Origin: Candidatus Desulfofervidaceae bacterium
GTDB taxonomy: Bacteria > Desulfobacterota > Desulfofervidia > Desulfofervidales > Desulfofervidaceae
Direction: 5' to 3'
Assembly (NCBI GenBank): GCA_030262855.1
Contig: JAJSZL010000002.1
Coordinates: 1,234-65,233, forward strand
Length of the DNA stretch: 64,000 nt
In this document: piece after piece, positions 42,037-50,577 of the stretch
How positions within the stretch are numbered: position 1 is the first letter of the stretch
How the letters are laid out: every line of letters begins with the position of its first letter
Program-made: the position numbers and the translations under genes
Notes under the pieces: model-generated
The model's database searches: none
Seen by the model: the letters and a program-made list of their open reading frames with translations, nothing else
Told to the model about the DNA's origin: nothing

Positions 42037-42112
42037 GGGCCGTTGGCTCAACTGGCAGAGCAACGGACTCTTAATCCGTAGGTTGCAGGTTCGAGTCCTG
42101 CACGGCCCACCA
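42037..42112 (+). tRNA. tRNA-Lys (anticodon CTT), CCA encoded
   Basis: Acceptor stem GGGCCGT/ACGGCCC. Anticodon arm ACGGA-CTCTTAA-TCCGT. T-arm GCAGGTTCGAGTCCTGC. Discriminator A plus CCA. Confidence 0.93.
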
Positions 42113-44349: not shown

Positions 44350-44420
44350 CAAAAATCAGCAGAAAATCAGGAGGTCAGGGGTTTAATTCCCTGCTGGCTT
44401 CAGAAAAAATGAGAAGTAAT

Positions 44421-45746: not shown

Positions 45747-46200
45747 AAAAACACCTCTGAATAAAAAAATGCCGCGTTTGCATCCCCCTCTGGGGATTGC
45801 GTCCCGACGCAGGCGGGACACGCGCGGCTTATTTATTTAATAATGCAGTTTAGCTTTTTTGTCAAGCACTTTTTACACAATGGGTAAAACCCTTGTTTTG
45901 AGTAGCCTGTCGTTTTTGTGCTTTATTCGTAAAGGGTGTAATGGCCGGACAGGTAGATTGACAGGTCTGTTGGCCTGTTAATCAAAAGGCTTGGCTGGTA
46001 GAAACAAGACATGATGGCCATAAATTACCAACACCATAGAAACACCTTTTAATTAACTTACTCAAATACCCGACGCTGTTATAAACCGTTCTGGGCAATA
46101 AAGAGGATATTAGGTGTAGATTATAAAGGATAATTATAGCAAGAATAGATTTTTTTTCTTGACAGAAAAAAGCGAGAGTGATAGGAGGTTAAAAAGAAAA

Positions 46201-46992
46201 ATGGTGCTAGAGAATAAAAGGAAGTTAGACAGTATTATGATATATCCTCAAATAGTTGATCTACCATTACTAGTTGATGCAACTAATTGGAGCTGGAGTA
46301 AAATGCAAGACACTAATTTCTGGATAGGTCATGAAATAAATGGAACAAAGTGGTTAGTGAAAGGACGAGGTAGCTTTTATGCCCTGAGAGAAAGGGCAGC
46401 TGCTTATTTGTTGCAAACAGTGGGTATAAATAGCCAGTCATCATCTTTTGTCATTCTTCCAGATAATTCTTTGCCTGTTGCAGAAAAGCCCGATATAGAA
46501 CGGTATCAGTTGGCTATTTGTTACATTGATGAGCATGTCGGCGATTGCGTAGATGGTGATAACTGTCCACTAAACAAACTGAATGAGCAATTCGATAACA
46601 CTTCGAAAAAAGTTTCTTTTTTAGAGACATGTTCTGTTAGTAATATAATTGATTGGGTCAAGTCAGAGGTGATGGCATACTTGTGTGGTGCTCATGAGCC
46701 ACCAGATAGATTATTTTCAAAAGACCACAGAATGTATGTAATCGATAATGAACAAATGTTCTCTACTAAACCGAGCAACCCTATAAAATGTACTTGGTTT
46801 GAGGAAGAATACGATGCAACTATGAATTTGACATTGGACCTCTGTGAACGGTTATCTAAAATAAATAAACGAGATATTCAGCTTTTCACAGCTATTCCAG
46901 ATGGATATGTTGTTGATAAATTATGGTCAATAACAGAGTTAATGGAGTCCACTGTGCAGTACGCAAAAGACTTTCTCAAGCAATATGGATAA
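46201..46992 (+). CDS. cassette 1: hypothetical protein, weakly HipA/lipid-kinase-like
   Basis: AGGAGG RBS at 46184-46189 with ATG 46201. The segments KWLVKG, ERAAAYLLQTVGI and GAHEPPDRLF...YVIDNEQMF are reminiscent of kinase catalytic/Mg loops. The functional call is low confidence. Confidence 0.55.
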   Translation: MVLENKRKLDSIMIYPQIVDLPLLVDATNWSWSKMQDTNFWIGHEINGTKWLVKGRGSFYALRERAAAYLLQTVGINSQSSSFVILPDNSLPVAEKPDIERYQLAICYIDEHVGDCVDGDNCPLNKLNEQFDNTSKKVSFLETCSVSNIIDWVKSEVMAYLCGAHEPPDRLFSKDHRMYVIDNEQMFSTKPSNPIKCTWFEEEYDATMNLTLDLCERLSKINKRDIQLFTAIPDGYVVDKLWSITELMESTVQYAKDFLKQYG

Positions 46993-47006: not shown

Positions 47007-47075
47007 GTCTAACAAATCGCTCCACCTGACCGCTATTCTACTGTCCATAACGGCAGGTGAACTTAGTTGTTCAGC
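47007..47075 (+). repeat. attC-like site 1 (69 bp)
   Basis: R'' is GTCTAAC. Arms are CACCTGACCGCTAT / ATAACGGCAGGTG with an unpaired A. There are 9-nt spacers on both sides. R' is GTTCAGC. Confidence 0.75.
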
Positions 47076-47098
47076 AACAGATTGAAAATAGAGAGTAG

Positions 47099-48259
47099 AT
47101 GAGTATGAGTTTTGAAATTAATCTATGGAAAGAAGTTCTAGAGAAGAAAGCTTTCGACAATAATTATTTAAAGAATCTTGAAAATGAAATTGAAAAATCT
47201 TTATCATTTAGGTTAATTTCAAGGAAACAGCAACTAGAAAAACTAATAGAAGCCTATCAAAATGAACAACTTGTCTTAGTTCTTGGAGCAGGAGTATCAG
47301 TAGAATATGGTTTGCCGAATTGGGATGCACTGCTACAAAATCTTTTATTAACGAGTTTCAAAACAGAAACACAGCAACCACCTGAGAAATCTTTAATTCT
47401 TGCTAAATTATTTACGAAATTATTTTCGCCGAACCCTCTAATTGCGGCTAGATATTTGCGCAATTATTATAAACAAAACAAAAATACTTCAGTAAAAAAA
47501 TTTGAACAAGCAATTCGTGACACATTATATAAGCATTTAAATGAAAAAAAGAAATCTAATATTTTGTCTGAAATAATACAATTATGTGTTGCTCCTGGAA
47601 AAAGCCCAAACTTGGATAGTATTATAACATTCAATTATGATGACATTTTAGAGTCACATTTATCTCAATTAAACATTGAAATACCTTTTAAAACTATTTC
47701 GAAAGTTGGACAACGTCCGAAGCCAGGGGAGTTACCAATATACCATGTACATGGGTTTCTTCCCAGAGATGGTGATATTAGTGAAGATATTCAAATTACT
47801 CTTAGTGAGGATATATATCACCAACAATATAACAATATATATAGCTGGAACAATATTATACAACTAAATAAATATAGAGATAATGTATGTCTGTTTATAG
47901 GAATTTCGCTGTCTGATCCAAATTTAAGAAGATTGTTAGATATTGCTAAAGTTCAAAGAGGGAATGATGATCCAATTCATTTTATTATCCGTAAAAAATA
48001 TAATTCTTCTTTATTAGAAAATAATCTATCACAGATTCTTGATCAAAATCCAGATCTTTTAGATGAAAAGTCAAAAGCCAATCTTAAGCTTGATGAATCT
48101 GTAAAATATTTAGTAAGAGTTATGGAGAAGTTTGAAACACAAGATGATTTATCTTTTGGTATTAATACAATATGGGTTAACGACTATGAAGAAATTCCGT
48201 CTATTTTAAAATCGATTAGGAAAAGAGAACCAATAATTGGAAAGAATAAGCATAGCTGA
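47099..48259 (+). CDS. cassette 2: SIR2-like (SIR2_2 family) putative NAD+-hydrolase
   Basis: 386 aa with LVLGAGVSVEYGLPNW (dinucleotide loop), ITFNYDD (catalytic Asn) and IYHVHGF (catalytic His). The stop TGA lies inside the attC2 inverse core. Confidence 0.8.
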   Translation: MSMSFEINLWKEVLEKKAFDNNYLKNLENEIEKSLSFRLISRKQQLEKLIEAYQNEQLVLVLGAGVSVEYGLPNWDALLQNLLLTSFKTETQQPPEKSLILAKLFTKLFSPNPLIAARYLRNYYKQNKNTSVKKFEQAIRDTLYKHLNEKKKSNILSEIIQLCVAPGKSPNLDSIITFNYDDILESHLSQLNIEIPFKTISKVGQRPKPGELPIYHVHGFLPRDGDISEDIQITLSEDIYHQQYNNIYSWNNIIQLNKYRDNVCLFIGISLSDPNLRRLLDIAKVQRGNDDPIHFIIRKKYNSSLLENNLSQILDQNPDLLDEKSKANLKLDESVKYLVRVMEKFETQDDLSFGINTIWVNDYEEIPSILKSIRKREPIIGKNKHS

Positions 48260-48327
48260 ACAAGTTGCTCCACCTGACCGCTATTCCGCTGGCGCTCCAT
48301 AGCGGCAGGTGAGCTTGGTCTTTGGGC
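48255..48327 (+). repeat. attC-like site 2 (73 bp)
   Basis: R'' GCTGAAC is the exact complement of the GTTCAGC at the start of this cassette. Arms are GCTCCACCTGACCGCTAT / ATAGCGGCAGGTGAGC with unpaired C and A. The R' position reads TTTGGGC. Confidence 0.75.
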
Positions 48328-48338
48328 AGCAAAAAAGT

Positions 48339-49238
48339 ATGAATAAACTATATCTTTCGCCAAATAGTGTATCCAAGTTGTTATCAGATGAATCATGGGT
48401 AGAAACCTATTTCAAATTTTTTGAAGAAGCGGTTAATCATTTAGAAACCTGTAAATTCCCAGATAATGATCTTTTAAAAATACGCATTCTTGACCCCATG
48501 GGCCTGCGTTATTTGGACTATAGGAGTGAATTCCAGAGATGGATGTTGATAGCATACTACAAAAATAAAGGTTTGCTCAAAGCTTTCCATGATTTGGATA
48601 ATGACTTGAAATTGCACGATATGGCAAAGTCAAAATATGATGGAATTGAACTAGGACCAATTCCAGAAGATATCGCCCAGAATTTAAATGAAAAAGATCT
48701 TGATACGATAAGGAAAGCCAACATTATATTAGGCTACACAAAAATATCTATATTAAATACCTGCGGTCATTTTATTTCAGAATTATTCTTTTCATTTGAA
48801 GCAATGTGCAGAGTAATATGCATGTCTTCATGCCTTGAAATATTTTTAAAAACAATTACTCCAAATATCTCATTGCAACATCAGGATATATCAAAAGCTT
48901 TAAATCGTTTATCAAATCCTGAAAGAGATCGCGTTTTATGTAAAATGTGTAAAGCTGATTCTGTGTGTAAAAGTTATCCGGTTTTTCGATATTTAGCTGA
49001 TTTCTATTTGTTACTATATCATATGCGGATTATTCGAGATTATCGTAAAGAGTATTTTTTGACAGAAGGTTTAGCTAACAGACTTATTAATACATTTCTA
49101 TTGTATGGTTTCAGGGCAGTCTGTAAAGCTGAAAAGATCATGGGAAAATCAATTGGAAATAGAATGAGGTTTCCATTGTCTCTTTCTGAAGAAAAAGAAA
49201 ATGTTGAAATTATCTTATCCAAACTAAGACAGGTGTAG
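48339..49238 (+). CDS. cassette 3: hypothetical helical protein, no recognisable domain
   Basis: 299 aa from ATG 48339. The track's GTG 48309 lies inside attC2. Confidence 0.6.
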   Translation: MNKLYLSPNSVSKLLSDESWVETYFKFFEEAVNHLETCKFPDNDLLKIRILDPMGLRYLDYRSEFQRWMLIAYYKNKGLLKAFHDLDNDLKLHDMAKSKYDGIELGPIPEDIAQNLNEKDLDTIRKANIILGYTKISILNTCGHFISELFFSFEAMCRVICMSSCLEIFLKTITPNISLQHQDISKALNRLSNPERDRVLCKMCKADSVCKSYPVFRYLADFYLLLYHMRIIRDYRKEYFLTEGLANRLINTFLLYGFRAVCKAEKIMGKSIGNRMRFPLSLSEEKENVEIILSKLRQV

Positions 49239-49250
49239 TCTTATGACAAT

Positions 49251-49333
49251 GCCCAACAAGTTAGTGCACCAGACCGCCAACCCGCTGCGCCTTCGGCTTG
49301 CGGTTGTCGGTTAGGCTAGCTTTTGCGTTAGGA
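49251..49333 (+). repeat. attC-like site 3 (83 bp)
   Basis: R'' GCCCAAC is a perfect RYYYAAC and complements the TTGGGC at the cassette start. Arms are CACCAGACCGCCAACC / GGTTGTCGGTTAGG. R' is GTTAGGA. Confidence 0.7.
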
Positions 49334-50001: not shown

Positions 50002-50577
50002 GTGCGCAGCGAGGCACATCGACAGGAGTGTATTGGCTGGCTTGCGTCAGCCCAAAACGTCGTCCATTTAGTTATAACAAACCCAAGTAATCCGTACAGG
50101 ACATGGGTAGATAAGATATGTAGCTCGGATCGAGGTTATTGTGTCCAAAAGTCGGTAGGCGAAGTCATCATGATCCTGAGGTTACTACTGCAAGATATCG
50201 AATCGGGCTTGTTGGCATCTATAGAGGATCAAACCAGGGCTTCTGTTTTTGATGATTTCTTAGATCATGCAAAAGAATACTTAAAACACAAGCGTAAGAA
50301 TGAAGCTGGTGTGATTGCTGGTGTTGTTTTTGAAGACACTTTACGGAGAATCTGCCGAAACGCGGGTATTACGGAAAAAGGTAAGAAACTAGACATATTG
50401 ATTGACAAGCTTGTAAAGGCGGGAATATTGACCCAGGTAAAAGCAAAGTGGGCTAAGGCCGCTGCACACGTCCGCACGAAGGCAACACACGCTCAATGGG
50501 ATGAATTCGAACTAGAGGACGTCAATACGACGATCAGTTTTACTGAAGAGCTAATACGCAAACATCTAAAACACTAA
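50002..50577 (+). CDS. cassette 5: HEPN-like (DUF4145-type) protein with an Rx4H motif
   Basis: C-terminal AAHVRTKATHAQW, where R158-x4-H163 is encoded at 50473-50490, preceded by helical repeats (VIAGVVFEDTLRRICRNAGI). The start is uncertain: GTG 50002 or ATG 50170. Confidence 0.55.
   Translation: MRSEAHRQECIGWLASAQNVVHLVITNPSNPYRTWVDKICSSDRGYCVQKSVGEVIMILRLLLQDIESGLLASIEDQTRASVFDDFLDHAKEYLKHKRKNEAGVIAGVVFEDTLRRICRNAGITEKGKKLDILIDKLVKAGILTQVKAKWAKAAAHVRTKATHAQWDEFELEDVNTTISFTEELIRKHLKH

Follow-up and report, generated by a model that had tools for sequence, protein, structure and literature searches.

The 64-kb stretch of DNA analysed here (the window) carries a SIR2-domain gene at positions 47099..48259 of the forward strand. 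The open reading frame (ORF) is intact, encodes 386 aa at the coordinates originally given, and was assigned to the SIR2_2 (SIRim-type) proteins using Pfam, PADLOC, a family alignment and a structural model. A second in-frame ATG is found at 47105 (the protein begins MSMS...), 9 nt past a GAGAG at 47091-47095, and the public protein entry begins at this codon, which gives a product of 384 aa. As the Shine-Dalgarno-like GAGAG suits ATG 47105, which is likely to be the real start, numbering in the real protein may be two lower than that used here, such that N179 and H218 would become N177 and H216.

The gene occupies a 1255 bp integron cassette (47067..48321, forward strand) made up of a leader of 32 nt, a single ORF and an attC site, and oriented like the cassettes on either side. 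The 5′ end is set by the attC of the upstream cassette (47007..47072, forward strand; R'' GTCTAAC at 47007-47013 and R' GTTGTTC at 47066-47072), where the crossover point is G47066|T47067. The attC of the SIR2 cassette itself (48258..48327, forward strand) has its R'' box, GAACAAG (48258-48264), overlapping the TGA stop codon of the SIR2 ORF and a degenerate R' box, TTTGGGC (48321-48327), with the crossover point at 48321|48322. The original boundaries of 47070-48321 were therefore essentially right, with the 5′ end adjusted to 47067. Both flanking sites are imperfect palindromes of ∼66-70 nt that form bottom-strand hairpins with one bulged base, and they have in common an exact 19-mer for which no matches are expected by chance (100 shuffles). 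The upstream site folds at -10.1 kcal/mol (z=-2.2) and the SIR2 site at -16.2 kcal/mol (z=-3.2), with none of 200 shuffles as good. Complementarity between the cassette start and the R'' region of its own attC is demanded of any cassette that once circularised, and the first 9 nt of the SIR2 cassette, TTGTTCAGC, are complementary at all nine positions to GCTGAACAA (48255-48263). Extending this comparison to five cassettes (SIR2 and the next four) gave agreement at 16 of 20 variable positions (binomial P=3.9e-7). The presence of one ORF between attC-type palindromes, together with this complementarity, bears out the proposal of a single-gene integron cassette. A motif scan for RYYYAAC...GTTRRRY missed both SIR2-flanking sites, whose boxes are non-canonical; the same scan did find attC sites behind homologues, which were then read by eye. 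Rfam holds no attC model, and its sole match in the window was a tRNA.

The ORF of the upstream cassette (46159..46992, forward strand, 277 aa) has no family match. Immediately downstream lies an independent cassette gene (cassette 3; 48339..49238, forward strand, 299 aa), with no match in Pfam, PADLOC or NCBIfam, followed by its own attC (49251..49333, forward strand; R'' GCCCAAC at 49251-49257 and R' GTTAGGA at 49327-49333). The start of cassette 3, TTGGGC (48322-48327), is complementary to the R'' box of this site, which folds weakly (z=-0.6); the four further attC-like sites downstream of that of SIR2 have weak folds (z about -0.5). In the R' box of the SIR2 attC a T replaces the crossover G (TTTGGGC and not GTTGGGC), a departure from the canonical G|TT. 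The SIR2 cassette is, from this substitution, probably no longer excisable apart from cassette 3, and decay, not function, may have joined the two; the description of cassette 3 as separately mobile is accordingly doubtful.

No integrase was found in the 64-kb window. The array sits in a 10-kb accessory island in a region of low GC, within a genome of 2.23 Mb in 157 contigs. An N-terminal integron-integrase fragment, cut by the contig end, is present elsewhere in this genome on contig C155 (5-487, reverse strand); its score against TIGR02249 is 212 bits, covering half of that model, versus 51 bits against XerC. A well-folded attC (1826-1885; z=-6.2) lies 1.3 kb from this fragment, with an R' box, GTTATGT, identical to that of one of the window sites. 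An integron integrase can thus be recognised at the level of the genome, in a position not adjacent to the SIR2 array, and with an integron elsewhere and no integrase in the window we classify the array that holds the SIR2 cassette as a CALIN, an array lacking its own integrase. On C155, two small cassette ORFs are divergent from the integrase fragment. Contig C56 carries a C-terminal integron-integrase-like fragment (1501-1662; 91 bits, model positions 261-314) and, at 2430-2804, a homologue (30% identity) of the DUF4145 cassette ORF at window positions 50002-50577, a hint of another cassette array in this genome.

A promoter scan of the 32-nt leader and the upstream attC found no promoter-like site beyond chance, and for this reason the SIR2 gene may be poorly expressed in situ, in agreement with the “biobank” view in which integron cassettes stockpile defence genes (PMC13434031). 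Elsewhere in the window, the sequence GGTCAGGGGTTTAATTCCCTGCTGGCTTCA (44373-44402) resembles the 3′ half of a tRNA (T-arm and acceptor). A hairpin and T-run come after it, similar to what follows the tRNA at 42037-42109, and the sequence may be the remnant attachment site of an integrated element.

Fold of the SIR2 protein and comparison with known systems

The SIR2 protein matches Pfam SIR2_2 (PF13289) with E=2.4e-15 and 57.3 bits against a curated cut-off of 24.5. Its NAD loop, LGAGVSVEYGLPNW, contains G63-A64-G65, and the motifs ITFNYDD and YHVHGF supply N179 (codon 47633-47635) and H218 (codon 47750-47752), respectively. In an alignment of this protein with 29 homologues at 46-70% identity, residues G63, A64, G65, N179, D181 and H218 were invariant in all 30 sequences, so that the GAG loop, the NYDD Asn and the HVHG His on which the original prediction was built are all in place. 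The only conserved cysteines in the same alignment are C163 and C264 and, with just these two, the protein is without the Cys4 motif of the sirtuin zinc module. Its placement in the SIR2_2 defence clade was likewise upheld, by the Pfam match and by its best PADLOC matches, to ThsA (1.1e-22), LmuA (2.8e-16), PDC-S25 and Dsr1, each confined to the SIR2 part of the profile; nothing in NCBIfam exceeded its cut-off. Judged by its sequence, the protein is a defence-clade SIR2_2/SIRim sirtuin with its catalytic residues intact, and is probably an NAD-destroying enzyme.

The AlphaFold (AF2) model is a single alpha/beta domain (pLDDT 75, pTM 0.79), and a Foldseek search of the PDB with this model returned defence SIR2 domains only. 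The SIR2 domains of B. cereus and E. coli ThsA were matched with E about 1e-11 (best E=9e-12), KomC was covered end to end with a target-normalised TM of 0.70-0.75, and the DSR2 SIR2 domain was also matched. In sequence alignment, residues 176-289 correspond to EcThsA 114-221 and residues 343-376 to EcThsA 252-285, where the SIR2 domain finishes; the window protein thus stops at the same point as the ThsA SIR2 domain. The ∼100 “further” C-terminal residues of the original prediction belong to the SIR2 fold and are no appended part; the ∼100 residues that the protein does have beyond the ThsA SIR2 domain fall in four places, namely the N-terminus, residues 85-170 (a small helical subdomain), residues 301-352 (a helical insert) and a short tail.

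This layout also bears on where a sensor might lie, which had been proposed to be in the short N- or C-terminal regions. A C-terminal sensor domain was rejected, as that region holds the last strand and helix of the SIR2 fold plus the conserved helical insert at 301-352. At the other end, the majority-residue frequency is 0.58-0.78 throughout the protein except in the last ten residues and in residues 1-45 (0.30), and of the proposed regions only this hypervariable, three-helix N-terminal segment is left as a plausible, and the sole plausible, specificity region. No recognisable sensor domain was found in the protein using Pfam and PADLOC profiles, the AF2 model or Foldseek.

Membership of the ThsA, DSR, SIR2-HerA, SPARSA, Kongming and Lamassu systems was rejected feature by feature. 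ThsA, the SIR2-SLOG NADase of type I Thoeris (PDB 8bto, 8wc0, 6lhx, 7uxt), is both the best PADLOC profile and the best fold match, and shares the catalytic Asn and His pair. However, ThsA has a C-terminal SLOG (or Macro) domain that the window protein lacks, its profile being matched at positions 66-277 of 478 only, and Thoeris has an adjacent ThsB (TIR) gene, whereas there is none beside the window's SIR2 gene and TIR is not recurrent in 150 homologue flanks. KomC, the 264-aa NADase of Kongming (PDB 8zsf, 9xvc), resembles the window protein in consisting of a SIR2 domain only, but the two are only distantly similar in sequence (E about 3e-6, about 20% identity) and KomC needs KomA (a deaminase), KomB (HAM1-like) and a dITP signal; neither gene adjoins the window's SIR2 gene or its homologues in 80 loci. 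DSR1 and DSR2 are single-gene SIR2 NADase defences whose SIR2 domain superposes on ours, but they are about 1000-1250 aa long with a large C-terminal sensor for phage proteins, in contrast to 386 aa without a sensor, and the NCBIfam Dsr1 model scored 20.6 bits against a cut-off of 1400 over profile positions 12-230 only.

The remaining systems differ by their partner genes or domains. In SIR2-HerA (Nezha) the herA gene is adjacent, but none is found beside the window's SIR2 gene or in 150 homologue flanks, and the PADLOC “SIR2” profiles match residues 43-195 only, weakly. SPARSA combines an adjacent short pAgo (Piwi) with an APAZ region, whereas this genome has no Piwi domain and Aga_SIR2 matched with E=1.8e-6 over 74 residues only. 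Lamassu LmuA has a C-terminal region, whereas the window protein matches its profile at positions 2-217 of 433 only; the adjacent SMC-like LmuB gene of Lamassu is missing here, and SMC_N occurs in two of the 150 homologue flanks. As originally noted, there is no SLOG, HerA, pAgo or TIR partner in the cassette, either as a domain or as a neighbour (Pfam, PADLOC), and the protein falls outside the known multi-gene SIR2 systems, the defining features of each being absent. It was also fair to say that the protein would differ from characterised systems whether it acts alone or with a partner, since none of the characterised SIR2 systems consists of one protein of ∼380 aa that works by itself.

Outside bacteria, human FAM118B/SIRal is a stand-alone SIR2_2 domain of similar size; it is a member of a clade restricted to vertebrates that has distinctive surface patches, and we liken it to the window protein by size and architecture. 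Filament-dependent SIR2 activity has been documented, with FAM118B activity depending on filament self-assembly (PMC12700824) and KomC being activated as a helical filament (PMC13434031). Integron-borne anti-phage genes have been described, in sedentary chromosomal as well as mobile integrons, on small single-ORF cassettes that encode a defence-type protein (Darracq 2025, Kieffer 2025, Getz 2025), as is the case here, although, unlike those integrons, the window array is a CALIN without an adjacent integrase in a non-Vibrio 2.2 Mb genome. We found no SIR2 cassette among the validated integron-borne systems named in the accessible texts.

A second SIR2_2 ORF, unrelated to the family described here, is present in the same genome on contig C81 (52-786, reverse strand; 244 aa); it has a GAGVS loop, appears to be truncated in its tail, and adjoins fragments resembling restriction-modification genes.

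Distribution of the family and its gene neighbourhoods

When 1.84 billion cluster representatives (clustered at 50% identity) were scanned in full with an HMM, 868 of them matched at E<=1e-30, and a word-indexed search retrieved 1532 relatives of the window protein, the best 120 of which are 304-487 aa long, mostly about 365-405 aa, with PF13289 alone. Hosts include Bacillota, Bacteroidota, Pseudomonadota, Thermodesulfobacteriota, Chloroflexota, Acidobacteriota, Cloacimonadota and the archaeon Methanothrix. The gene is absent from all 40 relatives of the source genome that were searched, at family, order and phylum level. The family is patchy and horizontally spread. No copy of the family was found in phage collections, and plasmid collections yielded three copies only, at 30-39% identity.

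At least nine homologues elsewhere are attC-flanked cassettes, with sites on both flanks in L001, L007, L011, L014, L046, L058 and L060 and on one flank only in L002 (downstream) and L035 (upstream); several of these cassettes have perfect complementarity between start and R''. They come from Gammaproteobacteria, with Vibrio, Shewanella and Colwellia among them, and from Thermodesulfobacteriota. A maximum-likelihood tree of the family conflicts with taxonomy, places the window protein as sister to the cassette-borne L001 copy (support 100/98), and distributes cassette-borne copies over at least three separate clades, which corresponds to at least three origins or losses.

More remote members of the same SIR2 subtype also occur as C-terminal modules of larger proteins: P0130 (923 aa) carries LRR-Roc-COR (548 bits), P0206 (461 aa) is of TIR-SIR2 type, and P0221 (1231 aa) contains GAF. 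These fusions mark the SIR2 module as an effector in immunity-type architectures. Many relatives of 430-510 aa have an unannotated N-terminal extension of about 130-160 aa. The SIRim clade has been reported to be 12-fold enriched near defence systems (10.1101/2024.09.18.613514), and the flanks of homologues in our set include type I R-M, DrmD, Old, AriA, PtuA, GajA and GmrSD as well as IS21 and resolvase genes.

No conserved neighbour emerged from these loci. BLASTP clustering of 80 SIR2 loci found no family in more than seven of them or at a fixed position, and no Pfam family occurred in more than two of 150 flanking proteins. Co-directional genes within 60 bp were the exception (11 upstream and 17 downstream in the 80 loci), and in nine loci the genes on both sides of SIR2 are on the opposite strand. 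The cassette-3 ORF (48339-49238), which had been regarded as the only candidate partner, was rejected in that role: a homologue is found in none of 84 SIR2 loci, and SIR2 in none of the five recoverable contexts of cassette-3 homologues. The adjacency of the two genes is the result of cassette order and a decayed junction. The upstream ORF (46159-46992) was rejected as a partner as well, with no homologue near any SIR2 relative in the 84 loci.

The cassette-3 family itself is rare, with only eight homologues in 5.8 billion proteins, in contexts that contain acetyltransferases, DUF4365, a histidine kinase with a response regulator and an Mrr-nSTAND3 gene. Homologues in L096, L097 and L098 lie in co-oriented arrays with GNAT acetyltransferases, a 257-aa protein of unknown family and DUF4365, and the L096 copy is beside a Phage_int_SAM_4 fragment; these look like cassette arrays in other metagenomes.

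Candidate function of the SIR2 cassette

The SIR2 gene, as a lone integron cassette from a family without a fixed partner gene, is a good candidate for a minimal one-gene anti-phage defence. The explanation that we put first, with slightly more than even confidence, is that it encodes a compact, partner-less SIR2_2/SIRim protein on a single-ORF cassette in a CALIN, acting as an infection-triggered NADase in abortive infection. The protein would be held inactive in the uninfected cell and, upon phage infection, would be switched on either when it meets a phage component directly or when its oligomeric state changes, a model based on analogy with filament- or oligomer-activated ThsA, KomC, Avs5 and FAM118B (PMC12700824, PMC13434031) and on the enrichment of the SIRim clade near defence systems (10.1101/2024.09.18.613514). 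The active enzyme would then hydrolyse NAD+ through N179 and H218, and the infection would be aborted. The hypervariable three-helix segment would be the most likely specificity or assembly surface. The window's SIR2 would most likely be an autonomous NAD+-depleting abortive-infection protein.

Several observations count against this explanation, namely that short SIR2 proteins need partners, that a sensor of the DSR1/2 type is missing, that the array has neither an integrase nor a promoter-like site in front of the gene, that the R' box is degenerate and several attC folds are poor, and that two TIR-domain genes are present elsewhere in the genome. To our knowledge, every SIR2 defence characterised so far has its sensor as a distinct part, fused as a domain or supplied by a partner protein. 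A further-reaching and decidedly tentative reading, again by analogy with FAM118B, would dispense with a separate sensor: the SIR2 fold, with its helical inserts and 45-residue N-terminus, may be both detector and executioner, forming an active oligomer or filament when triggered by infection, a phage protein or a metabolite. Such a partner-free immune sirtuin could spread as a single cassette across bacterial phyla and into Methanothrix archaea because no partner would be needed.

It is unlikely, although it deserves more weight than the other alternatives, that the protein is an effector requiring an unlinked partner or signal, such as a TIR protein or a nucleotide-modifying enzyme, and is inert alone. 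We know of no characterised short SIR2 protein that works without a partner: KomC, the SIR2 of SIR2-HerA and the SIR2-APAZ of SPARSA all need one. KomC, which depends on KomA and KomB, is matched by the window protein in both sequence and fold, the window protein has no sensor domain of its own, and TIR-domain ORFs that might supply a signal are present on two other contigs, C48 (16078-16383; 627 aa) and C138 (166-516; 196 aa), the latter a small contig whose TIR ORF could be another cassette. However, in several lineages the gene travels on a cassette with no other ORF, and the 70%-identical homologue is inserted alone between core genes; such movement would part SIR2 from any partner, and the 80 loci contain no conserved neighbour. 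Furthermore, the protein has no SLOG or Macro domain to receive TIR-made signals, a profile search found no Piwi domain anywhere in the genome, and no DUF87 match to HerA exceeded the cut-off in the genome.

A non-defence role is improbable. On this account the protein would be an NAD-dependent protein modifier (an ADP-ribosyltransferase or deacylase) or a regulator of NAD metabolism that is mobile by chance, which would fit the position of the 70%-identical homologue among housekeeping genes, adjoining an NAD(P)HX repair gene (YjeF_N/Carb_kinase), as well as the strong conservation of the core, where 52 columns of the 30-sequence alignment are invariant across phyla, an unusual property for fast-evolving defence proteins. 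It is at odds with the patchy distribution of the family, dominated by horizontal gene transfer and absent from the 40 relatives, and with a protein that lacks the zinc module and substrate-binding features of deacylating sirtuins and whose closest folds are all defence NADases; the Roc-COR and TIR fusions of the same subtype and the defence-rich flanks point instead to immunity.

Least probable of all is that the cassette is merely stored, an intact but unexpressed or non-mobilisable passenger of a decaying CALIN: the lack of an adjacent integrase and of a promoter-like site before the gene, the weak downstream attC (z about -0.5) and the missing crossover G in the SIR2 R' box agree with this, but the ORF retains every invariant family residue, an integron-integrase fragment and a well-folded attC are still in the genome, and the proposal concerns expression state rather than molecular function and is compatible with a partner-less, infection-triggered NADase.

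SIR2 NADase defence and the carriage of defence genes on integron cassettes are both already established. What the window's gene offers as a candidate is a ∼380-aa SIR2 domain without partner or sensor domain, none of which has been characterised in the literature that we found; our search likewise returned no experiments on a SIR2 system made up of one protein of ∼380 aa and no report of NADase or anti-phage activity for any member of this family. If a SIR2 domain of this size protects alone, it would be the simplest system in which to study how an NAD-destroying enzyme is restrained and then triggered, and with such a small gene the gating of a sensor-less SIR2 is directly testable. Bacteria would then also have an equivalent of the human FAM118 sirtuins, which are gated by filament formation, and a widespread family would join the defence genes that integrons stockpile and carry between phyla.
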